A stretch of DNA of 64,000 bases from the NCBI GenBank assembly GCA_000165345.1, contig CM000430.1, positions 672,001 to 736,000 on the forward strand, in the 5' to 3' direction. The notes under the pieces were generated by a model. It was not told the DNA's origin and did not search any database. It saw only the letters and a list, made by a program, of their open reading frames with translations. Below, one piece after another: positions 2,368 through 59,971 of this stretch (the stretch's first letter is position 1; every line of letters starts with the position of its first letter). Position numbers and translations under genes: made by a program.

Positions 2368-5285
<2,918 letters not shown>

Positions 5286-5546
5286 CAAAATTTGTCTCAA
5301 CCAATTTATCAAAAGAAGTATTCTTCTATATTATTTTGATTCTTAGCAATAGTAATGATAAAATATTCATTTAAATTATTACTTCACTTAAATTAATTTC
5401 ATTAATTACATATTTTTTTAATTAACATCACATTTTTTTATTTCACTAATTGTTTTAATATTTTTATAGTAAAAAAGCAAAAAAAAAACTTTCTCAATTA
5501 CTTGCGTTAATGCTCCTTCCACATAAAATAAATATATTTATACACG

Positions 5547-5638
5547 TAATTTGCATGTAATTATTTAATACCGGTATCATTATGTAAACTCTTTCCACAT
5601 TGAAAAAAATGTTGACATATACATGCGTGCATGCAAAT
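5547..5638. promoter_or_regulatory. inverted pair AATTTGCATG ... CATGCAAATT with central ATACCGGTAT palindrome, upstream of PGM copy 1
   Basis: A 10-bp perfect inverted repeat flanks about 72 bp. The inner TGCATGCA box is at 5628-5635. Confidence 0.35.
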
Positions 5639-6134
5639 TTGCAATATATTTAGATAATATATTTCTTACTAAATCCTTTATTAGTTTTATTAAAACAATA
5701 AATAGAGAAAAGTATAAATTATTGTTATTATTACTATTATTATTATTATAAACACAAATTTTGGTTAATTATAAAAGGATAATATCAACAATAAGTAAGG
5801 ATAACAAATAAAGAGCTTAAAGTATAAATTGGAAACTAGTATTTGTGTTTTTTTTTAGAGTAAAGCAAACTGTGTGATTCAATATGAATAATAATTTCTG
5901 AATGCAAATAAATATCTTGGAAATTATCAAATTAAATTAATATTTAGTGGCGCTATGGGGAAAATATTTCTAATCTGGATATTATGTTAATATTACTACA
6001 TGAAATCAAAATAAGCTACTGAATTCAAGATAAATAATATTAAATAATTACCAATTATTTAAGTGCTTTTTTATAAAAACTTTTAAATAATTTTGTTAAG
6101 TTAATAATTGATATATTAATTATAAAATAAAAAT

Positions 6135-7841
6135 ATGGAGCAAGTTCAAGTAACGCCTTATCTTGACCAGAAGCCAGGAACAAGTGGTCTAAGAAAGAAA
6201 ACCCGTGTATTTATGGAAGGAACTTACTTGGCTAACTTTATTGAATCATACTTCCAATCATTCCCACCTGAAAATTTTGAAGGTGCAACACTTTTGGTAG
6301 CTGGCGATGGTAGATTCTTTCTACCAGAAGCAATACAAATTATTTCCGAAATTGCTGCAGCACATAAAGTTAAAAGGATTTGGACTGGTGTTAATGGCTT
6401 ATGTTCAACACCAGCAGGGAGTGCTATCATAAGAGAAAGAGAAGGCGGTATTGCAGTCGGTGGAATCTTATTAACAGCTTCACACAACCCAGGTGGTATT
6501 GATGAGGACTTTGGAGTTAAATTTAACGGAAAGAATGGTGGCCCAGCTCAAGATTCGGTTACCAATACAATTTTTGAAATTACAAAAAAATTAACATCAT
6601 ATAAGAAGATTTCACTTCCTAAAATTGATTTAAGTAAAATTGGCGTGCAGGAATTAATACCCAATCAATTTACCGTCGAAGTAATAGATACATCTGAAGA
6701 TTGGCTAAAATTAATGAAAAAGATATTTGATTTCCAAAAGATTCAAAATCTACTTAATAGAAAAGATTTTAAAATGGCTTTTGATTCTATGCATGGTGTG
6801 GCTGGACCATATGCAAGAAAACTCTTTGTTGACGAATTTGGATTGCCAGAAAGTTCATTGTTACATTTGGAATCAAAGCCAGATTTTGGAGGGCTTCATC
6901 CTGATCCAAATCTTACTTATGCAAAAGACTTAGTTGAATTAATGAAAGTTAAATCTCCAGAAAAAGTTGATAAAAGCACGCCAGATTTTGGTGCTGCTGG
7001 AGATGGTGACTGTGATAGAAATATGATTTTGGGTAAAGGATTCTTTGTTACCCCTTCAGATTCTGTTGCAATTATTGCATCATATGCGAAAGAAGCAATC
7101 CCATACTTCTCAAAAGGATTGGCTGGTGTCTCAAGATCTATGCCTACTAGTACTTCGCTCAATAATGTAGCAGAAAAGCTCGGAATCCCATGCTATGAGG
7201 TACCAACAGGATGGAAATACTTTGGTAATTTAATGGATGCAAAAATGATTGACATATGTGGTGAAGAATCTTTTGGAACAGGAAGTGACCATATTCGTGA
7301 AAAGGATGGATTATGGGCAGTGTTGGCTTGGTTATCGATTCTAGCCCACAAGAATCCAGACCCAACAAAGCCATTGGTATCTGTTGAGGATATCACTAGG
7401 GAATTCTGGAAAACATATGGAAGAAACTACTACACTAGATTCGATTACGAATCAATTGAAACAGAAAAAGCTGATCAATTCTTTAAACATTTAAATTCTT
7501 TAATGGAAGATCATCAGAAATTAAGAGAAATCATTAAACCATATGGTATTGATATCAAATTAACTGATAACTTTACATATAATGATCCAGTAGATAAATC
7601 TGTCGCAAAAAATCAGGGTTTAAGATTTATCTTTCAGGATAACTCCAGAGTTGTTTTCCGCCTATCAGGTACAGGTTCAGTAGGAGCAACAATTCGAATT
7701 TACATTGAAAAGACTGTGAGTGATCAAACAAAAGTTAATAGCACATCAAACGAAATCCTTGGCGATTTGATTGAGATAGTTGAGAAAAAGATTAAATTAA
7801 AAGAATCGACAGGAAGAGATAGGCCAACTGTTATAACTTAA
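6135..7841 (+). CDS. phosphoglucomutase (alpha-D-phosphohexomutase), upstream cytosolic-type copy
   Basis: It has the active-site loop TASHNPGG and the metal-binding loop DGDCDRNMILG, and the length is PGM-like at 568 aa. There is no signal peptide. Confidence 0.9.
   Translation: MEQVQVTPYLDQKPGTSGLRKKTRVFMEGTYLANFIESYFQSFPPENFEGATLLVAGDGRFFLPEAIQIISEIAAAHKVKRIWTGVNGLCSTPAGSAIIREREGGIAVGGILLTASHNPGGIDEDFGVKFNGKNGGPAQDSVTNTIFEITKKLTSYKKISLPKIDLSKIGVQELIPNQFTVEVIDTSEDWLKLMKKIFDFQKIQNLLNRKDFKMAFDSMHGVAGPYARKLFVDEFGLPESSLLHLESKPDFGGLHPDPNLTYAKDLVELMKVKSPEKVDKSTPDFGAAGDGDCDRNMILGKGFFVTPSDSVAIIASYAKEAIPYFSKGLAGVSRSMPTSTSLNNVAEKLGIPCYEVPTGWKYFGNLMDAKMIDICGEESFGTGSDHIREKDGLWAVLAWLSILAHKNPDPTKPLVSVEDITREFWKTYGRNYYTRFDYESIETEKADQFFKHLNSLMEDHQKLREIIKPYGIDIKLTDNFTYNDPVDKSVAKNQGLRFIFQDNSRVVFRLSGTGSVGATIRIYIEKTVSDQTKVNSTSNEILGDLIEIVEKKIKLKESTGRDRPTVIT
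6174..7530 (+). repeat. near-identical segment of tandem PGM duplication (partner 8397..9752)
   Basis: By direct comparison the two tracts are collinear at an offset of 2223 bp with only scattered mismatches. Identity collapses immediately 3' of the codons for MEDHQ/MEDSQ. Confidence 0.85.
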
Positions 7842-10064: not shown

Positions 10065-10918
10065 ATCTTTTTCTGTATTAAAAAATAAATAATTTCATTA
10101 TTTTATAATTTTTCTTGGTGCAATTTGGAATTTAAATCAACGAATCTATGTATGGAGCCCTCATTTTTTTCTTCGTTTTGTTTTTATAGATATTTTTATT
10201 TGAGTTCAGTTCATTTTTTCAATATTTTCACTAATTTTTTCTCATTGTAATGGATTATTTAAATTTAATAAAAACTGGAATTATATCACTACATCATTTG
10301 TGGATTAATTAAGTTTTTATCCTTTCAAGTTTAGAAAGTTTGTAAAGTTTTATTATTTTTAGTTAGTCTTAAATCATTATGTGATAATTTATTCTGAATG
10401 ATGCATAATTTAATAAGATAAAATAGAATGTAATGTAATTTTGTCACATAAACCGTATTTAGGTCGTTTTGTATTACTTTATCATTAAGTTTCTATGCCT
10501 TTATTTTATCTCTTACTAAATTATCTATTTCCTTTTTTTTTTATAATGGATGCTCAAGTACATGCAACTAATTGCATGCTTTTGGCGCCAGAATGACATT
10601 TTTTCTCCTTTATTTAGCTTCAATATTTTTGTAAACTAGAAAAGGCGAACTAAAAGAAATAACTTACACACACATACAAAGTGCTTTCTTATTTTTATAG
10701 AAAAAAAAAGGAATATTAGAAATAAGCTTTTTTTTATTGTATTATTGTTTAATATGGGCTCTACAAGGAAATATTTTCTAAAAAAACATGGTTTTATTCT
10801 ATACCAAAATAAAATAATTGCTTTACTAATTGCGCAAAAATAAAATAAGTTTAATTAATCATTTCTTTGGTTTGTTAATTAATAATTTCTAACCATTATT
10901 CAAATATATTAATTATGT

Positions 10919-10986
10919 GGGCCCGCCTACGATAGAAATTGCCCGCCCAACGTCCATTCCGACGACAATGGTAGGCGGGAATTTCT
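10919..10986. promoter_or_regulatory. GC-rich island with three CCCGCC/GGCGGG E2F-like cores and 9-bp inverted repeat (CCCGCCTAC...GTAGGCGGG)
   Basis: It is the only GC-rich stretch in a 1.5-kb AT-rich intergenic region. A neighbouring TTGCATGC+TTTGGCGCC pair lies at 10572-10589. Confidence 0.35.
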
Positions 10987-11558
10987 GAGACAATTTTTAT
11001 GAAAATATTAAAGTACCGATATAGAGGTTAATTATATAACTGGTAAGATTTTTCTTTTTTTTTTTAATTTAAAAGAATTAGAAAATGTATAAATAAAAAC
11101 CGGGTAAATACAAGAAACATTATTTAAAGTAAATAATACAGCCAAGTATATTATTAAGGGGAAAAGACATAAAGTTAATGTACTTTTATTAAATAAGAAA
11201 ATAATAGTCAAAACCCCGGGATATAATTGTGGAAAAAAAAAACTGAATATAAAAAAATACCAAGGAGGAATAAGCGAAGTAATTGACAAGAAATCATCAT
11301 ATTTGATATAAATCAAGTTGTTTAGATTTTTTTCAATAATACAGTTTAGTATCCACGCATATATATATATATATATAAATATATATAAATATATATGTAC
11401 ATACATTTATGCCAATAGAGAGCCTTACATAGTTATTAAAGAAAATTTTAATTTAACTATACAAATAGAATATTGTTTAAGTTACAAGAACAATATCTAA
11501 TATATAAGAAATTTCATGTAACTATACAAATTAATTTGGGGATTTCTATGAGAAAAAA

Positions 11559-13259
11559 ATGAATAATATGAAGTTTTTATTTTATTTTGGATTTTTGGTT
11601 TATGTTATTGGATCATCTGTGAATGCTAATGATTTAGCTCTTCCTCTTAAGAAGAATAAGGAATGCGAACATTGCATTATAAAGGGCGATCAAAGTGTTA
11701 AAACTCAGGTTAAAGGAGCCTATTTAGTGGTTGAGAAGGAAACCACTCTTTCTAAAACTCCAGATACACAAATTAAGCCATTTGATGAAGTTCCAAAACC
11801 ACCAAAGGTTGGAACTGATGATGCCGAAGATGATAAAACCAATGTTAAGGAATTAAGTCCCACTGTTGGTGAAGTTCCAAATGTTGTTCCAGAGCCTAGA
11901 TATATTCCAACTGTAAAGATATATGATTCTCAAATTGAGGATTTATCATTTCCAGAAGATGTTGATTCAGAAACACAATCAGAAGAGTCTGAAGATGATA
12001 ATGAAGATGAGCTTATTTTGACACGTTTGCAACTTGGAGGCCAAGTTGAAGTGGTTTCAAAGAGAGACAGTGAAGGTAAGATTGAGATTCAGAATATTGG
12101 TAACCTTGATTTATCTTGTACTCGAATTGAAGAGGAAACTAAGCCAAAGAGTAAATCAAAACTTAGAGGTAATAAATCTTCAAATTCAATGGTTTCTGGT
12201 TCAGATTGCCCTCAAAGTACCCGTTTCCTGACATATGATCTCTTAATGTTACAGAATGTAGGAGAGGAGCCTACTGATGGTGATAGTGTTACTTCACAGC
12301 CATCTTTAGAGCATACAGAGTCTGAGCAGAATAGCGGTAACGGTCGTGTTATTAGAAAGTTAGCTAGTGGTTTGGAATGCGATAAATGTGAATTATGCAC
12401 AGAAGATAAGAAATGCTTCTACCATAATGGTAAGAATACTGATAAATCTTCTGAGGCTTTAGAGTCAGACCTACCTTCATCTACTACTACTACTACTACT
12501 ACTACTTCTTCTTCTACTACCACTACCACTACCACTACCACTACCACTACTACTACTACTACCACCACCGCAATCCCACCTTCAATGTCAGATGAGGAGA
12601 AGTCACCATTTGTAAGTGATGATATCTCCAACGATGAAGTCCCAGCTCAAGATGACTCAAATAAGACTCCATCTACTGAAACAAATAAAGATATAGATAT
12701 GAATGTTTTATTAGACAATATGAATGCTTTAGTTAAGATCGTTAAGGAAGGGAAAGAAGAAAGTGCTAAGGCTCAGTTAGAACTTCGTAAAGATAGGGAA
12801 CTATTGACCAAGGTTATTTTAGATCTTAGAGATTCCAAGGATTTGACACAATTATATATACAGCTTGCCAAACTTGAGATGGAAATTAACTTGGTTAAAC
12901 AAAATATTGGACAATTGAAGAGAGATTTAGAAAAGGCCAAATCTTCTAGTAACTTTTTGACTCAATATGAGAATAAGAATAATACAGAATTAGAATTAAT
13001 GAAAGAGAAAGCTATGAGTAGTAAATTATATTCTCCTAAACTTGCAAGAGCAATTTCCAGACTTGAAAAGAAAAAGATCAGTACTCATGCTATTCAAAAG
13101 GATGTCAGTAAGAGAATTGAAAGCTTATCACAAGCTATTTCTACTGAAGAATCTCGTATTTCTGAATTATTAGAGCAAAAGAAGAAAACTGAAAATATAA
13201 TAAATAAGATTTCAAGTGAGGAGAGGTTATCATTCGATGAAGTTGATAATAAGCATTAA
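11559..13259 (+). CDS. secreted Thr/Ser-rich mucin-like protein with C-terminal coiled coil
   Basis: It has the signal peptide MNNMKFLFYFGFLVYVIGSSVNANDLA and an acidic region. It has a tract of about 30 uninterrupted Thr/Ser encoded by (ACT/ACC)n, which is a likely O-glycosylation stalk. The C-terminus has heptad-like coiled-coil sequence. Confidence 0.6.
   Translation: MNNMKFLFYFGFLVYVIGSSVNANDLALPLKKNKECEHCIIKGDQSVKTQVKGAYLVVEKETTLSKTPDTQIKPFDEVPKPPKVGTDDAEDDKTNVKELSPTVGEVPNVVPEPRYIPTVKIYDSQIEDLSFPEDVDSETQSEESEDDNEDELILTRLQLGGQVEVVSKRDSEGKIEIQNIGNLDLSCTRIEEETKPKSKSKLRGNKSSNSMVSGSDCPQSTRFLTYDLLMLQNVGEEPTDGDSVTSQPSLEHTESEQNSGNGRVIRKLASGLECDKCELCTEDKKCFYHNGKNTDKSSEALESDLPSSTTTTTTTTSSSTTTTTTTTTTTTTTTTTTAIPPSMSDEEKSPFVSDDISNDEVPAQDDSNKTPSTETNKDIDMNVLLDNMNALVKIVKEGKEESAKAQLELRKDRELLTKVILDLRDSKDLTQLYIQLAKLEMEINLVKQNIGQLKRDLEKAKSSSNFLTQYENKNNTELELMKEKAMSSKLYSPKLARAISRLEKKKISTHAIQKDVSKRIESLSQAISTEESRISELLEQKKKTENIINKISSEERLSFDEVDNKH
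12479..12569 (+). repeat. trinucleotide (ACY)n coding microsatellite (poly-Thr)
   Basis: The sequence is tactactactact...accactaccact...; the antisense ORF 12419..12631 is a poly-Val artefact of this repeat. Confidence 0.9.
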
Positions 13260-14200
13260 TTAATGGTTCTCTAAGCTTAATTCTTGCTACTTTAACCCAT
13301 AGATAATTCTATCATAAAGAAGAAAAGAATCCAACTTGAAAATACTCTCTTAATCTAATAACAATCTTCTTCTTATATTGAAAAAAAAGAGAAGATGTAA
13401 TTTATTAACAGGATCTCCGAGACGTGGAATCATTAAAATACCCATTATTCATCCCCTTGTCTCCAATTTGGACATATATATGAGCTTCTGACTAATTTTA
13501 TCATTATTATATTATGATGGTTACTATACTACTAACATACTAGAGCAAATTCCAGATAACAAAAGTGGAAATGATCCTATTTCCTTTTTTTTCTGTTGAT
13601 TGTGGTAACTAATTAATAAAGGAGCAAGTATTTAGTTCATTTGATGATGTAATATGAGAGTTAGTAGTGTATTTATTCACTACATTGTTGTGCTACATCA
13701 TTTTTATCCATACTGAAAAGGAATTAAAGAATGTGGAGAGGAACTAAAGCGAGAAGAGAGAGAAAAACTTGATAGAAATGGAGAATAATAGTAATAAATA
13801 GATTTAGAGGTCGTTATACATAATTGTCGTCGACAACTTACTTTTAAATTCTGCCGAGAATATTCATTATTTAGTCCATTTTAATTATTAACTTTAAAGA
13901 CAATTTTTTTAATGTATTGTTTATATTAATATTGTATTTGAAAGATTAAAAAAAAGTTACTCTCCAAAATGCATGTTTGAGCGCCAATTTTTTTTCTTCT
14001 TAATCAATTTCCTACTCTGCTTATCTTTCAAATCGATAATAATTTATAAAAACTGACTATACTGGGAAATTGGTTGTAGATACATAATTCTGGAAAAGAA
14101 ATACAATTATTGCCGATCATTTAAAAGAAAGTAAACAGTTATATTTGAATAAAAAAATCTAAAATAAAACCTAATAAAGCATTGTCAGTTCTGAAACGCT

Positions 14201-14317
14201 TACCGGTATGACAAATATTTGCATGCAAAATTGAAGGATACCCGCCCAAACATTTTATGCACGCCCACTAGTTGTATAATATAGGGATGGGTATGTTTTT
14301 GTTGGCGCGCGCGCCAA
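14201..14317. promoter_or_regulatory. motif cluster: TACCGGTAT, TGCATGCAAAATTGAA, CCCGCCC, CACGCCC, perfect 16-bp palindrome TTGGCGCGCGCGCCAA
   Basis: It lies in the 3'/3' convergent intergenic region between the mucin-like gene and the Gly/Arg-repeat gene. Confidence 0.35.
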
Positions 14318-14448
14318 TAGCTGCCACCTGTTAATTAAGATGTCTGAAGAGTGGAATGACTGGAGTAAAGTGATCAATTGGAATATAGTGCATAACTGAC
14401 TTGTTATTTCTCTCATTTTTCCTTTCCATCTTTTTCTTTCTCTATCTT

Positions 14449-16161
14449 TCAATGTTTACTCGAATTTTCATGTTTAGACTTGCCATTGCCTCCTCTTCCT
14501 TTTTTTCCCCCTCCTCTAGTGGAATGTCCTCCTCCTCCTCTACTAGAATGTCCTCTACCAGAGCTTCCTCCTCTACCAGAATTTACTCCTCCCCCACCAG
14601 AATGTCCTCCCCTACCAGAATGTCCTCCCCTACCAGAATGTCCTCCCCTACCAGAATGCCCTCCCCTGCCAGAATGTCCTCCTCCCCTAGAAGAATGTTC
14701 GCCTCTCTCCATACCTCCTCCTGCTCTTCTTCCTTCTCCTTCTTGTATCACTATCCCTACTCCTTCTGAGTTTTCCCCAGTACTAAGAGCATCCTTAATT
14801 TCAAGTTTTGAGAATAAATGATCAAATAAAGTAATGTTTGAAGAATTATCATGACGAGATTTCAGGAATTCTCTAGCATCAGAGTCAATTTTCTCAGTTG
14901 ATCTAAGAAGTTTTCCTCTAAGAGGAGCTCCAGGATCTCGATCATCATGTAGCTTATTCTTGTCATTCTTACTAGATGCAGATGTTTTTGATGTAGTTGT
15001 AGCCTTTTTTGATGATAAATTAAACTTTTCCAAAGAAATCAAATTCTGTTTTTTATATTTTTGAATCTCCTCAATAAATTCATTATAAGCTTTAACACTA
15101 TTTTCCAAATTCTTGGAATCATTTTCAGATTCGACCGTATTAGTATTCCCAGTAGAAGATAAAGCCAAACAAGGAACAGATTTTAACTTGGATTGAATTT
15201 CTTTATTTTGTTGATAACTTTGTTGTGCATCTTTAACCTGTTCATTTAACTGCTTCCTTTCTGATTCCTTATTTGCAAATGGGATAAATTTCGGTGGTTT
15301 TTTTGTCAGATTTTTTGATCCAGAAAATCCTTTAGATCCTGATCCACTTAATATATTATTCAATTTCCAAGATTCCACCAAAGATTCCACATTCCCTCCC
15401 AAATATTTTACATTATTATTATTTAATAATAATATTGAATTCTGTACTTGTATTTTACTTAATCCTCCTTGTTGTAAATTCAACAATAACTTTGTACCTG
15501 GATATAATACCATATTGTCTTCATTATTCATACAATTCAATCTCTCATATTCTAAAGCGTTAATTATCACTGTATCATTCTTTTGGGTACTTGATTGTTC
15601 TGAAGTTGGTAATTTCATTTTTCCTGTTGTTAATGTAAAATATAACATTCTCTTTTTAAGCTTTATTTTACTTGAAAATCCTTTTCCTTTTTTTCCTTTT
15701 TCCTCATCTAACTCAACTTTCTCTTGTTTCTTATTCACAAAATTATCACTATGATTATTATCATACTCCATTAAATCATCCCAAATTTCATCTTTAAGAT
15801 CACTATCCAAATCATCATTATCATTATCAAAATCTCCAATTGAAGACCTTTTTGGTCTTATACAATCATATGATTTTACTACCATTACTAGTAAATTATT
15901 CAAATCTGTAACTATTTTTCCATCTCTAAATTTAATTGATTCTCCTATAAAATACTCCCTTAAATCACAATCCAATACAAACTTATCCAGATCTTTTTTC
16001 CATTCATCCTTAATCATACCGCTCTTATTACTAACAACATTCTTTTTAATCTTCCCTCCTTTTTTCTCTAATTCATCCAATATATCTTGTTTCTTCTCTT
16101 CTATTATTGATAATATCCCATACTTTTCTCTCAAATATTCTTCCACTTTAATTATATTCAT
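14449..16161 (-). CDS. hypothetical protein with C-terminal Gly/Arg (GGHSGR)n repeat, RGG-box-like
   Basis: This is a 570-aa ORF. The C-terminus is GGHSGRGGHSGRGGHSGRGG...GKKGRGG, encoded by an 18-nt tandem repeat, with a KDEL-less basic tail. The N-terminal two-thirds are unremarkable. Confidence 0.5.
   Translation of the reverse strand: MNIIKVEEYLREKYGILSIIEEKKQDILDELEKKGGKIKKNVVSNKSGMIKDEWKKDLDKFVLDCDLREYFIGESIKFRDGKIVTDLNNLLVMVVKSYDCIRPKRSSIGDFDNDNDDLDSDLKDEIWDDLMEYDNNHSDNFVNKKQEKVELDEEKGKKGKGFSSKIKLKKRMLYFTLTTGKMKLPTSEQSSTQKNDTVIINALEYERLNCMNNEDNMVLYPGTKLLLNLQQGGLSKIQVQNSILLLNNNNVKYLGGNVESLVESWKLNNILSGSGSKGFSGSKNLTKKPPKFIPFANKESERKQLNEQVKDAQQSYQQNKEIQSKLKSVPCLALSSTGNTNTVESENDSKNLENSVKAYNEFIEEIQKYKKQNLISLEKFNLSSKKATTTSKTSASSKNDKNKLHDDRDPGAPLRGKLLRSTEKIDSDAREFLKSRHDNSSNITLFDHLFSKLEIKDALSTGENSEGVGIVIQEGEGRRAGGGMERGEHSSRGGGHSGRGGHSGRGGHSGRGGHSGRGGHSGGGGVNSGRGGSSGRGHSSRGGGGHSTRGGGKKGRGGNGKSKHENSSKH
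14541..14697. repeat. 18-nt tandem repeat (ccagaatgtcctcccctac)n inside CDS
   Basis: There are 5-7 copies with degenerate flanks. The overlapping + strand ORFs 14401..14769 and 14480..14821 are antisense artefacts. Confidence 0.85.
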
Positions 16162-16364
16162 TTTATTATCTCCACTCCTAAATATATACTAATTCACTTT
16201 TTTATATTTAAGTTTTTAAAAGAACCTAAATCAAATCAACTCTTTCAAAATTATCAATTTCAATATTAATATGACCAATTTTATATTTTTAACTGATAAA
16301 AAAAAATTTTAAAATAAAAAAAAAAATCGACACAAATTTACATTTTATTTTCGTGATCCAAAAA

Positions 16365-16399
16365 CGCCGGTATAGAGAAAAAAAAATAAGGTACCGGCG
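16365..16399. promoter_or_regulatory. inverted pair of ACGCCGGTA motifs (cgccggtatag ... ggtaccggcg) followed by G-rich box
   Basis: It lies upstream of the minus-strand gene starting at 16161. Confidence 0.35.
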
Positions 16400-16593
16400 T
16401 GAGGGGGGAGGAGCAATATCACGGGTAGGGAGGATTAATTAAAAAAAAAAAAAAAAGGGAATTTTTAAAACTTAAAAATTAAATTAGCGATAACTTAGAA
16501 GAAATTTAATATCAGAAAGGAAGAAATAGTATTAAAAAAGAAAAGGAAAAGGTAGAAAATTTAGATAGCTCCAATCTTTTATTAGCTTTGTTG

Positions 16594-22805: not shown

Positions 22806-22877
22806 TGCATGCAATAAAAATTTGACAATTATGTGGTTTGCAACGCCGGTATATAATTTGCGCATGTGTTGCATGCA
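22806..22877. promoter_or_regulatory. two TGCATGCA boxes plus ACGCCGGTATA, bounded by inverted repeat GGTTTGCAAC / GTTGCATGCAAACC, upstream of cathepsin C-like gene
   Basis: Read directly at 22806-22813, 22845-22855 and 22870-22877. Confidence 0.35.
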
Positions 22878-31129: not shown

Positions 31130-31480
31130 TTGTTTAAATTTCTATCATAGCCAACATTCCACTTTTTACTTTATAATATTTACAATTACAATTTGAAAAG
31201 TTTCACAAAAAGAAAAGATGTAGCTAAAAATTAAGCAAGGCCAGGTTAGAAAAGGATGTAATGTATTTGGAGCAATATTAATAATTACTTATTATTTAAA
31301 GTTATAGTCTTTTTTTTATTTACTAGAATATGATATATAAATAAATAAGCGAGGAAAAACCAAGCTGTTAAAATTAGCTTTAGGTGAAATACTCATTTTA
31401 TTTGTTTTTCTTCTAATAAGGTACACTTTATTGTCGTCAAAAAATTAACATGGAAAGTTAAGCCCAAATAACCGGAGAAT

Positions 31481-31526
31481 GTTTGCGCCAAAAAATGCAT
31501 GCAAGTGCATGCATGCAAAATTGAAA
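31481..31526. promoter_or_regulatory. E2F-like TTTGCGCCAAAA followed by three overlapping TGCATGCA boxes and the 16-mer TGCATGCAAAATTGAA
   Basis: It lies in the convergent 3'/3' region between the gene ending at 31129 and the secreted-protein gene ending at 31579. The 16-mer is identical to 14220-14235. Confidence 0.35.
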
Positions 31527-31578
31527 TGTGGGAATCAAATTAAAATAATTTCTTTTCCTATATAAAAGCAATAGAAAT

Positions 31579-39919: not shown

Positions 39920-42515
39920 TTATAAGTTAAAGTTTGATATTAATGTCTCAAGCTGCTTAGTTATATTGCTCAGCTTATTTATATTTCGATGGCATTGCTG
40001 CCTTTTTTCCACTATCCCTTTTTCTTCTTGAAGAAGGTCGTCAAAAATCTCCTCTCTATAGAGTTTTGCTACCAACTCTCTCTGAATTGCTTCTTTAGCA
40101 GCATTCACCATAAAATACATGATTGCCTTGGGAACTGAGTCTGCTACGTTCTTACGCACAATGTTAAAGTATGACACAATGAAAAATTTTATCACATCTG
40201 ACTCAATCTTTTCCCGTTCTGAAGGATCCCCAGATGTTGCTATTGTTTCTGGAACCAATGGCAATCCCATCTTTCCCCCAAACCTTCCTGAATAATTCTT
40301 CTCATTCTCTGCCAAATTGGCGCCAAATACCCCTGCATGCACAGTTTTGGCGGGATTGTGGCCTTGTATTTTCTTAACTGGGCTAAAAATGTCAATGGAA
40401 GAAGTTGTTGAACGGTTGGTTGGGAAAACTGGTGAGTTTTCGTTGATGCTTTTTATTGGTTTGGAAACAGAGCTTATTTGGTGAGTTTCGATAACTTTGT
40501 AATTTTGGTAGGTTGAAATATTTTCTGTCTCGTTATATTCTGTGGAAACATATTGTGATTTACGAGACTCATGTTGATCATTAAAGAAATCATTCAAAAT
40601 AATTCTACTTTTTCCTGAAGGAGTCATCGGGACTGAATCAGAATCAAGAATAATAGAGTCTTGTACTTGTTTGTTGGACCTATCATTTGAGTTATTTCTA
40701 GTCAAACCTTCAGTTAAAAAGGCTTTTTCCTTTTCAAAAATAGAAGTTAGGGCTGACGCACCTCCAATAAAGTCTGGATGGTTTGTATTTATATAGGCCA
40801 ATTCCATATTTATAAGGTCAATCACAGCTCTGTTAGTTGGTCCAAGGCATTCTTCTAGGACATGATTGACTACTGAAATCATATTATTCTTCAAATTAGA
40901 GTATCGATTAAGCTCCGGTAAAGAACATTGCTCAACTAATCTTTTAAGTTCATCATAGACTTGTTCTACGCAAGTAAGAGAAGGCCTAAGTAACTTTTTT
41001 ATTTGGATCCTTGCAAGAACTTCAAATGCGCCTTCAGATACAAATAAAGACGATTTTGTTCCTGTTGAATTTTTTATTGCTGTTCTAATTTCAGTATCTG
41101 ATAGACCATCCAAAGGATCAAAGTTGAAAAGAGTGTTTCCAAACCAGTTATGAAATACATAATTCAGTCTTGCACCTCCTGAAAGCTTCATTAGGCCAGT
41201 TTGATAGGATGCTTGTCCATCAATCATATTTTGGAACTTTCTTGAAAACTTTGAAAAGCAGTTTAGTATCATAGCTCCTTTGTTTTTTATCATATAGGAT
41301 CCATCAAGGCCTATACTTTCTCCTCCAATGAATAAAGCTTTGTTAGTTAAGGCACTAATTCCATCTAAATAAGAAAGCAATATATTATATTGTAATTGAA
41401 GTATTTCATTATATTTACTTACCTATTTCATCCATTATATCAGATTGAGAAAAATCACCATAATTAATTAGCTCCATTTGTTTAAGATCTATAAGCTTTT
41501 TTGAATGGTTCTTAATCTGTGGAAGCAACTTAAGAATGTGATCCAGAAACTCCTTTTGGAGAATATTTACTAAGTTGTAAGTTCCACAGCGAGACTGATA
41601 AGACTTCAGTTTTGAGTTGTTTTCGAAAAAAGACTTTTCATCATTCAAAGAAGCTCTCAAAGATCTTGGACCTCCTGCTTTTTGTCTGGAATCTCTGCAC
41701 ATAACTGCTACATACCCCCTATTTAAAGGATATGATTGATTACTTAGTACTTGTAGTGTTGTTGAGTAATTTTCTACTGTGTCCAGTTTACTTAAAACAC
41801 CTATTGTTCTGATACCTTCAGGATCCACCTCTCTTGCAATATTTAAGCTATCAGAATTTGCAATATCAGTGTTTGCAGCTGTAATTGCCAAAATTAAACA
41901 GCTTGGACGTCTTATATATGACAAAACAATCTTCCTAATTTGAGTTTCTATATCAAAAGGTTGGTCCTCAATTGGTACTTTTGTCAATCCTGGTAGGTCC
42001 ACCAAAGTCAAATTAATTGCCTTCTTTGAGAAGATTCTCAGTAATATCGGAACTTCTGAAACATTCTTATTTTCTCCTATCAATCTATTGGTCTCAATCA
42101 GAATTTCTTCTTTGACTTTTTCGAAATCTGTAAATTTCAGCCCCTTTTTATGGCCAAACTCTGCGTAGTCATCTCTATTTTCTTGCTTAATTTGCTGAAG
42201 TTGCAAAATAAGTGGCCTCCTAGTGACTATTCCTTGTCCTCTTGGCAGAAAATGACGGCCTAATAGGTCATAAGTGCATTAATAAACAACGAAAATAGTA
42301 ATCATAAGAATTATTATAAATTTAATATAATTTGTCAGAAACTTACCTATAATGTATTCCAAAAGTGAAGTTTTCCCTACTGATTGAGAGCCTACTACTG
42401 CTATTTCAGGTAGGTCTAAGTTTAATTCATTTGAAACATTGCAGCCTCCTGAGCCCTCTTTTAAAATAGTCAGAATATCATGAAGTTCGTTTATAATAGG
42501 TATCAGAGAATCCAT
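39920..42515 (-). CDS. dynamin-related GTPase, predicted 3 exons (816 aa)
   Basis: Exon 1 is 42515..42347 (MDSLIPIINELHD...GSQSVGKTSLLEYIIG, which carries the P-loop). Intron 1 is 42346..42260 (GTAAGT..TATTAG). Exon 2 is 42259..41423 (RHFLPRGQGIVTRRPLILQLQ..., LVDLPGLTKV, the dynamin G2-G4 motifs). Intron 2 is 41422..41365. Exon 3 is 41364..39920 (GGARLNYVFHNWF middle domain, GED). The ORF-track start at 42527 is a TTG. Confidence 0.8.
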
Positions 42516-58558: not shown

Positions 58559-59620
58559 TCAATGTAATATTTCTTGAATAAACGTGGAAACCATTTCAAA
58601 TCCGAATTGTAGACTTATTAGCATGAATGTATAATCTTCAAAATTATCCAATATGTATATTAGTATGTGATTTAATAGTAGAATCATTGATAGCATCTTT
58701 CTTGAAAAAATAAAGAACAATTTTGCAAGTATTATTACCAATAAGTAATATTCTAGGATACGAGAATATAACTTTTTTCTTATGTTATCGAATGAATTGT
58801 TTATTTTCTCAATATAGGATGTTAATTTTGATTTTATATTTTCCAAGATAAATTCAATTTTTCTTGACAAACTTTTTTTCTTATTTCCCATAGAAACTTC
58901 TAAGTTTTTCATTAAATTTTCAATATCTTCGTCTATCAGTTTAATTTCTGTGCTAACAGATTTTGATAAATGTTGAATATAATTATTTACAGTATCTGTA
59001 TTTTCAGCTATTTTTCTGTAGGCTAATTGATCAATTGAATATTGTTTATAAAAAATAGACAAAATAACTAACTTAATAGTAAGATTTTTTGAATTGTTTT
59101 CAAATTTACTGTTTTCATTTCCAAATTTCATTATACCATAATCACCTAGATTAATTTTTGAAAGTTGATTTACAATCCTCTCAATATCTTCAAGCTCATA
59201 CTGATTATACCATTTAATGTCATAGTTACTAATTATTGTGCTATTCAAATATGGATGACTTTGATATGCTATAAATCTTTCTCTTATTTTTGATTTTGTA
59301 TTTTTATTAATTAAATCTATTAATTTTCTTAAGAATATAATATTCTTAGTTCTACCATTAAAGCCAAATATACCATTACTTCCACTCTTAGCTGCTTTCA
59401 ATAAATGAATTAACTCACTTTCTAGAATAATCCAATAACATTTTAATTCTTCTTCTTTCCTAGTAGTACATTGGTCAGTAATTAATATATCTTTTCTTAA
59501 CTCTTGCACAAAATTTTCAAAAAAATCCAAAAAATTCACTTTACACCTGATTTCACAAATTATTACTACGATTAGCAATGCGAATAGCCAAATCTGACTA
59601 CTTTTGAGCTTTGCATGCAT
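58559..59620 (-). CDS. hypothetical membrane/secreted protein
   Basis: The ORF-track start at 59641 is a GTG, and the first ATG is at 59620, giving MHAKLKSSQIWLFALLIVVIICEI (a signal peptide or anchor). There is a C-terminal hydrophobic segment. Confidence 0.35.
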   Translation of the reverse strand: MHAKLKSSQIWLFALLIVVIICEIRCKVNFLDFFENFVQELRKDILITDQCTTRKEEELKCYWIILESELIHLLKAAKSGSNGIFGFNGRTKNIIFLRKLIDLINKNTKSKIRERFIAYQSHPYLNSTIISNYDIKWYNQYELEDIERIVNQLSKINLGDYGIMKFGNENSKFENNSKNLTIKLVILSIFYKQYSIDQLAYRKIAENTDTVNNYIQHLSKSVSTEIKLIDEDIENLMKNLEVSMGNKKKSLSRKIEFILENIKSKLTSYIEKINNSFDNIRKKLYSRILEYYLLVIILAKLFFIFSRKMLSMILLLNHILIYILDNFEDYTFMLISLQFGFEMVSTFIQEILH

Positions 59621-59971
59621 GCCGGTATTAATTTTTGTCACCTATTAAAAATGAACAAACAGGCGCCAACATGTACATGCATACATTGAGAGTATTTTTT
59701 TGGCCACGTAATAAGGGAGGAAAAAAAAAAAAAAAAAATTAATCCCACACAAATTACAAACTGACATAAAATAATAAAAAAATATTATAAAGGAGGAGAC
59801 TCGTAAGGAAAATTTATGTAAAGATATGCCATAGTTGAAGGTTTTGTATATTTTTCAAGTTAATGATTAAATGTTAAAGAGCAATTTGTTAGGATTAAAA
59901 AATACACATACACACGTAAATATAAAGCAATAAATAAACTTTTTGAAGAGAAATATAATGAATTGATATAG

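Follow-up and report, generated by a model that had tools for sequence, protein, structure and literature searches.

The window analysed here is a stretch of 64,000 nucleotides from chromosome 2 of Cryptosporidium parvum, and our subject is a cluster of short motifs at 14201-14335, a candidate promoter module, that lies in a gene-free gap of 1,189 bp (13260-14448) between the stops of two convergent genes. The gene on one side (11559-13259, plus strand) encodes a mucin-like protein of 566 amino acids (aa) with a poly-Thr tract, whose C. xiaoi orthologue is named ‘mucin like protein’, and that on the other (14449-16161, minus strand) encodes a 570-aa RMI1-like protein with an RMI1_N domain (PF08585 in orthologues) and a Gly/Arg-rich C-terminal tail. 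From gene order and numbering we infer these genes to be cgd2_3290/CPATCC_000587 and cgd2_3300/CPATCC_000586 respectively; other genes of the window are tandem phosphoglucomutases, CPATCC_000580/581/589 and CHM_2g3360 (C. parvum Iowa II and IOWA-ATCC proteins). The convergent setting reported in a preliminary description of this DNA was borne out, with the stops of the plus- and minus-strand open reading frames (ORFs) at 13259 and 14449, and all five motifs that it had listed were recovered at exactly the same coordinates. Local GC content at the motif cluster is 0.44, as against 0.27 elsewhere in the gap.

Two motif families described for C. parvum are relevant to this cluster, namely E2F (DTTGSCGCCH, TTTGGCGGGAAV) and AP2_1 (BGCATGCAH), the latter being bound by the AP2 domain of cgd2_3490 (PMC3734150). 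The module contains a single CCGGTAT element, a single AP2_1 site, one or two GC boxes of E2F-like type and a (GC)5 palindrome with a double E2F site. The first of these, TACCGGTAT (14201-14209; core CCGGTAT), is a promoter-associated co-motif; it is absent from the motif families named in the literature examined, the closest being ‘motif 4’ of Li et al. (2021; PMC7840661), found upstream of long non-coding RNAs (lncRNAs), which it appears to resemble (CCCATACCAGGTGGA, instance CCTATACCGGCTGTC). The next, TGCATGCAAAATTGAA (14220-14235), is an AP2_1 site with a AAATTGAA extension, in which TTGCATGCAA at 14219-14228 fits the AP2_1 consensus (BGCATGCAH / TGCATGCA); a second exact copy of this 16-mer is located at 31510, in another convergent gap. 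It is followed by TACCCGCCCAA (14239-14249), an E2F-like sequence that agrees with TTSSCGCCWAA at 9/11 positions, includes the CCCGCCC box (14241-14247) and resembles TTCCCGCCCAA and AGCCCGCCCAA, two of the E2F-scored motif-1 instances in the searched part of the PMC7840661 supplement, and then by the CACGCCC box (14260-14266), a weak E2F-like or GC box. The sequence TTGGCGCGCGCGCCAA at 14302-14317, which occurs once in the window, is indeed the perfect 16-bp palindrome that had been reported. It consists of two overlapping E2F half-sites TTGGCGCG, one per strand, around (GC)5, and on both strands these fit the E2F consensus (TTSSCGCCWAA / DTTGSCGCCH / [A/T][C/G]GCGC[G/C][A/T]). Just 3′ of the palindrome there is a tentative conserved box, CCACCTGTTAAT (14324-14335), of which CCACCTG (14324-14330), read as its reverse complement, would match a segment of motif 4 of Li et al. 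Further into the gap, at 13969-13987, there is another and smaller pair of motifs, in which ATGCATG precedes the E2F half-site GAGCGCCAA.

The abundance of these motifs was compared with counts expected from dinucleotide-preserving shuffles of the 64-kb window. We observed 10 copies of TGCATGCA where 0.66 were expected, 17 of TTSSCGCS where 1.05 were expected and 9 of CCGGTAT where 1.24 were expected, an excess over chance of 7-16 times per motif class across the window. Most of these sites are located outside long ORFs (15/17 for E2F, 8/10 for AP2_1 and 7/9 for CCGGTAT), although such DNA makes up 28% of the window. There are just two places, 14203 and a divergent 5′/5′ region at 59612, where all three classes come together in a span of 117 bp, and neither a three-class cluster nor the pair of E2F and TGCATGCA was produced in any of 300 first-order Markov simulations of 64 kb (0/300 in both cases). 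These data effectively exclude a chance origin of the motif cluster. The statement that a like motif grammar is present in genuine 5′ regions elsewhere in the window also holds, such regions being found at 91, 5568-5635, 22806-22877, 40317-40341 and 59612-59669. CCGGTAT sites, often in the form GCCGGTAT, are located at 5568-5577, 14203, 16367, 19292, 22846, 56248 and 59622, and because 4/9 copies lie within 60 nt of a TGCATGCA, we regard CCGGTAT as a true co-motif.

The RMI1-like gene is convergent with the mucin-like gene from C. parvum through C. bovis and C. ryanae. The gap between them measures approximately 1.19 kb in C. parvum, C. hominis and C. tyzzeri, 1.17 kb in C. meleagridis, 1.37 kb in chipmunk genotype I, approximately 1.39 kb in a Cryptosporidium contig of the Logan assembly (L011), 0.70 kb in C. 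felis and 0.48-0.54 kb in C. bovis and C. ryanae. The C. felis gap appears as 175 bp under the annotated, extended RMI1 model and as approximately 700 bp otherwise; this spliced 545-aa model (L005, 5001-6987) overruns the stop of a continuous 486-aa ORF (5001-6461) that already contains the Gly/Arg tail, and its extension to 6987 is probably an annotation artefact.

Within 14195-14325 we counted the variable alignment columns in motif cores and in the spacers between them and compared the two by a Fisher test. Among four species, 8/56 core columns were variable as against 37/75 spacer columns (p = 2e-5), a difference in which some ascertainment bias is left since the cores were defined on the C. 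parvum sequence. The corresponding counts were 18/56 and 53/75 (p = 1e-5) when chipmunk genotype I was added, and 2/56 and 13/75 (p = 0.012) for the trio of C. parvum, C. hominis and C. tyzzeri; in the rest of the gap, 24% of columns were variable in the four species and 53% with chipmunk genotype I included. The motif cores are, by this comparison of sequences, under purifying selection. At the level of the individual elements, TACCGG or GCCGG is kept at the CCGGTAT position in C. hominis, C. tyzzeri, C. meleagridis and chipmunk genotype I, and the TGCATGCAAAATTGAA site is identical in the first three of these, the chipmunk genotype I version being TGCATGaAAtATTtAA. The same three species have an unchanged CCCGCCCA core of TACCCGCCCAA, which is lost in chipmunk genotype I, and they also keep the ATGCATG and GAGCGCCAA pair, which is degraded there. 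The CACGCCC box is kept in C. hominis and C. tyzzeri, and C. meleagridis has a second TGCATGCA in its place. In C. meleagridis, moreover, the right arm of the palindrome has decayed to TTGGCGCGCACGCCAG and a new E2F-type TTGCCGCC lies approximately 10 nt downstream; judged from the aligned sequences, the changes in this species are motif turnover. The box at 14324-14335 is kept as C[AG]CCTGT[TC]AAT in C. parvum, C. hominis, C. tyzzeri and C. meleagridis, where it overlaps the C. meleagridis TTGCCGCC. Chipmunk genotype I keeps TACCGG, TTTGCATGAA and GTGGCGCGCGCGC, and (T/G)TGGCGCGC is kept in 6/6 taxa, i.e. C. parvum, C. hominis, C. tyzzeri, C. meleagridis, chipmunk genotype I and the Logan species (L011).

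The mucin orthologue of L011 is 50% identical with that of C. parvum and its gap is unalignable to the C. parvum gap apart from one short match, the only one of high identity, which covers 16/17 nt over TTTGgTGGCGCGCGCGC. This gap contains CCGGTAT, then after 5 nt the (GC)6 sequence TGGCGCGCGCGCGC and after a further 10 nt TTGCATGCA, in one copy each and approximately 130 nt from the RMI1 stop. The C. parvum gap was too divergent for nucleotide alignment to those of C. felis, C. ryanae and C. bovis; the C. felis gap has TTCCCGCG and TTCCCGCC, both of E2F type, together with ATGCA at 220-270 nt from the RMI1 stop, and the E2F/AP2 module is absent from the C. ryanae and C. bovis gaps. Taken together, the comparative evidence indicates that 14201-14335 is a functional DNA-level cis-regulatory module under selection. 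That it might instead be a functionless GC-rich patch of chance or neutral origin would agree with the lack of expression evidence and of annotation and with the poor overall conservation of the gap, but we consider this exceedingly improbable given the 0/300 simulations, the far greater conservation of cores than of spacers (p = 2e-5), the motif turnover and the persistence of motifs in unalignable sequence.

In six taxa the E2F core is found 129-154 nt from the RMI1 stop and 1036-1256 nt from the mucin stop, and the former distance is held while the remainder of the gap diverges. This constancy speaks for the module serving the RMI1-like gene as a regulatory element on its 3′ side. Located approximately 140 nt past the stop, such an enhancer or silencer would respond to E2F and act on the RMI1 promoter, e.g. 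via promoter-terminator proximity, and would give no stable transcript itself. Genes for DNA replication and repair are typically regulated by E2F. An over-representation of E2F motifs upstream of DNA-replication genes is reported (PMC3734150), and the RMI1 5′ region (16162-16593) has a paired GCCGGTA and a G-box and no TTSSCGCS. The same view draws support from the restriction of the module to species with a Gly/Arg-tailed RMI1, with C. ryanae and C. bovis lacking it, and from the lack of an lncRNA for this locus in the searched part of the Li et al. (2021) catalogue. We nevertheless think such a 3′ element quite unlikely, since no Cryptosporidium 3′ enhancer is described in the literature examined, the clade correlation amounts to two independent lineages only and the motif vocabulary has, in every test by the assay for transposase-accessible chromatin with sequencing (ATAC-seq), marked regions where transcription starts. 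As regards the RMI1-like gene itself, the Gly/Arg tail is present across the clade from C. parvum to C. felis, and the C. ryanae and C. bovis orthologues (L006 and L007; gene 5001-6182) are 393-aa proteins without it. The G-box in its 5′ region is adjoined by an inverted pair, CGCCGGTAT...TACCGGCG, at 16365-16398.

The fixed distance from the stop codon would also suit a role of the GC palindrome at the RNA level or in 3′-end formation, either as a stable hairpin, with a stem of 6 bp and a loop of 4 nt, that one of the convergent genes would carry in an extended 3′ UTR (untranslated region) or read-through RNA, or as a barrier to convergent polymerases, in which case the neighbouring AP2 and CCGGTAT motifs would be incidental or separate. 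Of all elements, the (GC)5-6 core is the most constant across the taxa, and the palindrome-arm substitutions (A15>G in C. tyzzeri, A16>G in C. meleagridis and C14>T in chipmunk genotype I) are all transitions that keep a G·U pair on the plus strand, although this count of 3/3 is not significant (p = 0.125) and pairing is uninformative in that any (GC)n tract is self-complementary. Against a hairpin, the constant part is (T/G)TGGCGCG, a left half-site in agreement with the E2F consensus, and the palindrome as such is not preserved, because its right arm decays in four taxa. The other GCGCGC-type sites of the window (35007 and 36573) fall in 5′ regions, and the co-conserved CCGGTAT and TGCATGCA are DNA-level promoter motifs whose co-occurrence in the unalignable L011 gap a hairpin would leave unexplained. 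On this evidence we hold an RNA-level role of the palindrome to be very unlikely.

The gap evolves as non-coding DNA. Substitutions in it have no 3-periodicity (p = 0.94 for C. meleagridis, 0.33 for C. hominis and 0.98 for chipmunk genotype I) and few of its indels are multiples of 3 (4/18, 0/10 and 6/28 respectively), whereas both flanking coding sequences have a strong third-position bias and 100% in-frame indels. In addition to these negative codon-phase and indel tests, a six-frame tblastn search with chipmunk genotype I, C. felis, C. ryanae and C. bovis gave frame-independent nucleotide conservation interrupted by stops, and a protein-coding gene in the gap was accordingly rejected. An 83-aa ORF of chipmunk genotype I and a 118-aa ORF of L011, considered as a shared gene, proved mutually unrelated. 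There is no coding potential downstream of the module; the plus-strand ORF at 14341 has just 19 codons and its frame is broken by a 5-nt deletion in C. hominis. With regard to known RNA families, the window as a whole contains no tRNA and no match to an Rfam 15 family at or above the gathering score. Four weak Rfam matches (E = 1 to 8) were obtained in the C. parvum gap at permissive thresholds, and across C. parvum, chipmunk genotype I and L011 such matches (E = 0.13 to 9) did not recur at orthologous places. One of them, to Plasmodium RNase P at 14345-14453 (17 bits, E = 6.7), was discarded as it had no counterpart at the orthologous place in chipmunk genotype I or L011. Similarly rejected were a C/D small nucleolar RNA at 13642-13716, whose D box is not conserved in C. 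hominis or C. tyzzeri, and a telomerase-RNA template, AAACCTAA, at 14166-14173, which is not conserved.

These properties may be set beside what has been published on non-coding transcription in C. parvum. Among 396 C. parvum lncRNAs, the two leading motifs in the 100 bp upstream are those of E2F/DP1 and AP2_1, and the two are reported to occur together upstream of 17 lncRNAs; 92% of the 396 are antisense, with coverage that favours the sense gene's 3′ end (PMC7840661). According to a review, an antisense transcript exists for approximately 10% of genes, and the annotation of the CpBGF assembly comprises 766 lncRNAs. The promoter module resembles the lncRNA promoters of Li et al. (2021; PMC7840661) in combining their top motifs, E2F (TTSSCGCCWAA) and ApiAP2 (ANTTGCATGYA), with the motif-4-like CCGGTAT and CCACCTG, and also in its setting, which is non-coding DNA at the 3′ end of a protein-coding gene, the E2F core lying 129-154 nt past the RMI1 stop. 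It differs in that the module stands alone in a 3′/3′ gap, whereas 309/363 of the antisense genes in that catalogue have an upstream mRNA gene in head-to-head arrangement, and in the form of its E2F site, which in place of TTGGCGCCAA is a (GC)5 palindrome of unusual length (16 bp). The canonical 5′ promoters of C. parvum (Oberstaller et al. 2013, PMC3734150; Xiao et al. 2025 preprint, sporozoite ATAC-seq peaks) also have the E2F and AP2_1 families in a GC-rich island within AT-rich intergenic DNA, and the combination is as at the divergent promoter 59612-59669. Unlike these, the module has no protein-coding start downstream on either strand, both neighbours presenting their 3′ ends.

Given that the cluster is genuine, is not a product of chance and is conserved between species, it probably acts as promoter of a non-coding RNA, and a promoter is the default, plausible reading since E2F/DP1 and AP2_1 are the top motifs upstream of lncRNAs that typically start at the 3′ end of a sense gene. 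We thus interpret 14201-14335, with moderate confidence, as the promoter module of an unannotated non-coding RNA, the product of which is most likely antisense, and as a probable addition to the already described E2F/AP2-marked class of C. parvum lncRNA promoters. The promoter candidate of the preliminary description is in this way upheld in part: it stands as a cluster of recognized, selected cis-elements that fits the published biology, and its transcript start is a prediction. Several points weigh against a promoter. No gene is annotated in the gap in two C. parvum sets or in those of C. hominis, C. tyzzeri, C. meleagridis and chipmunk genotype I, and locus-specific expression was found neither in the literature nor in database look-ups. 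The searched part of the Li et al. (2021) lncRNA sequences contains no match to either strand of 13400-14640 (the Cp_lnc_50 primer, which served as positive control, was recovered), and the searched part of their upstream-motif table has no row that matches the palindrome or the GC boxes; this negative is weak because the set has no time points before 24 h, when E2F/DP expression peaks, and contains approximately half of the current lncRNA annotation. To these may be added the ascertainment bias referred to above, the variation of motif order between species and the identity of the gap to chipmunk genotype I, which is 61% overall as against 69-76% in neighbouring intergenic regions. As the whole gap is less conserved than these regions, its conservation is patchy and not general. 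Finally, the direction of transcription is not readable from the sequence.

As to mechanism, we infer that E2F/DP1 and an AP2_1-binding ApiAP2 such as cgd2_3490 would bind the module and open the chromatin, after which RNA polymerase II would start an unannotated non-coding RNA. The likeliest product would be a plus-strand antisense RNA that starts at approximately 14320-14420, within approximately 100 bp past the palindrome, and runs over the 3′ part of the RMI1-like gene with its Gly/Arg repeats; this gene is the likely sense partner. The plus strand is favoured by the fixed distance to the RMI1 stop and the known 3′-end bias of antisense transcripts, and also by the fact that E2F is the motif nearest the gene in some genuine promoters of the window (59612 and 40317). 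An alternative or extra product would be a minus-strand long intergenic non-coding RNA of approximately 0.9 kb that crosses the gap and contains a conserved block at 13770-13895. The minus strand, or a second product, is favoured by the approximately 700 bp of extra gene-free DNA in module-bearing species and by the footprint in this block.

This footprint (13770-13795 and 13843-13895), an imperfect inverted repeat approximately 125 nt across, is the strongest phylogenetic footprint of the gap; between C. parvum and chipmunk genotype I, 13845-13889 has 93-97% identity against 59% for the whole gap. It could be a small non-coding RNA, a 3′-end signal or a protein-binding site, and it may belong to the minus-strand transcript that the module would drive. 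The possibility arises that the module is the promoter of a small structured non-coding RNA, or the relic promoter of a lost gene, on the minus strand, with the block as the functional RNA. This would account for the approximately 700 bp by which the gap exceeds its counterparts in C. ryanae and C. bovis, both without the module, and for the identity of 13845-13889 being well above background; a second pair of ATGCATG and GCGCCAA lies 75 nt from the block, and 43 novel intergenic non-coding RNAs of intermediate size have been described, some of them conserved in the five closest species only (Li et al. 2022, PMC9465071). We regard this as unlikely. The arms of the footprint pair without variation between the pairs and with one compensatory pair only, and the tested region (13755-13905) showed no advantage in folding over shuffled sequence (z-scores of +0.83 and -0.04, neither significant), so that a structured RNA was rejected there; the footprint was also not significantly recovered in L011 (E = 1.7). 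Furthermore, no Rfam match was obtained for C. parvum, chipmunk genotype I or L011, the 83-aa and 118-aa ORFs of the latter two are unrelated, and the candidate C/D and H/ACA boxes are not conserved, the ACA of a candidate H/ACA box 3′ of the 13770-13895 hairpin being lost in C. tyzzeri and chipmunk genotype I.

The assertion in the preliminary description that no promoter is expected in a 3′/3′ gap proved too strong. E2F motifs are present in three other apparently convergent gaps of the window (10574-10589, 31485-31525 and 39299), two of which also have an AP2_1-type core, and on account of these and of the lncRNA and antisense literature the assertion fails for the C. parvum genome. The closest parallel to the promoter module at 14201-14335 lies at 31470-31525, in a gap of 449 bp (31130-31578) between a cgd2_3350-like and a cgd2_3360-like gene. 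Here ACCGG (AACCGG) and GCGCCAA are followed by TGCATGCA within the identical 16-mer TGCATGCAAAATTGAA, all 50-110 nt past the stop of the minus-strand gene, and chipmunk genotype I and C. ubiquitum retain the E2F site, at 41-93 nt past this stop. In contrast with the module at 14201-14335, the gap is shorter, there are three AP2_1 copies and the (GC)5 palindrome is lacking. A duplication between the two convergent gaps was considered and rejected, since there is no significant similarity beyond the motifs and the 16-mer alone is shared. Elsewhere in the 31130-31578 gap, a block at approximately 31215-31270 is highly conserved in C. parvum, chipmunk genotype I and C. ubiquitum.

It is conceivable, though we think it unlikely, that convergent gaps carry a distinct kind of promoter module, anchored to the 3′ end of a gene, in which E2F, AP2_1 and CCGGTAT at a fixed 40-150 nt past the stop control the sense gene, by antisense transcription or by an E2F-dependent 3′ action, rather than make a functional RNA. 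If this were true, a 3′-anchored module would give a DNA-repair gene, the RMI1-like gene, the E2F cell-cycle control that its 5′ region lacks. Gene regulation in Cryptosporidium is experimentally almost untested, and a conserved module of approximately 135 bp, isolated in a gene-free gap and free of a confounding neighbouring 5′ end, would offer a clean substrate on which to test whether E2F/DP1 and AP2_1 sites suffice for initiation, which direction it takes and whether antisense transcription from 3′ ends controls the sense gene, in this case one for DNA repair. Should the transcript already be part of the CpBGF annotation, our finding would amount to its correct re-discovery from sequence alone.

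Two further features of this part of the window deserve mention. In 10065-11406, past the second phosphoglucomutase gene, a 968-bp gap contains GCATGC and TTGGCGCC (10574-10589), CCCGCCC (10942) and GGCGGGAA (10974). A 124-aa gene on the minus strand (11032-11406) is annotated there with 124 or 84 aa in C. parvum, with 100 aa in C. tyzzeri and with 48 aa in 1/2 assemblies of C. hominis, being absent from the other assembly and from C. meleagridis and chipmunk genotype I; this may represent either a coding gene of doubtful validity or non-coding transcription. In the gap between the mucin-like and RMI1-like genes, chipmunk genotype I has an expanded (ACT)n/(ACC)n microsatellite (L004, 7620-7790, equivalent to approximately 13500-13540 of the window) that gives rise to a 51-aa poly-Thr ORF, probably a product of slippage and not a gene, and the C. 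parvum counterpart is a short remnant, ACTATACTACTAAC.

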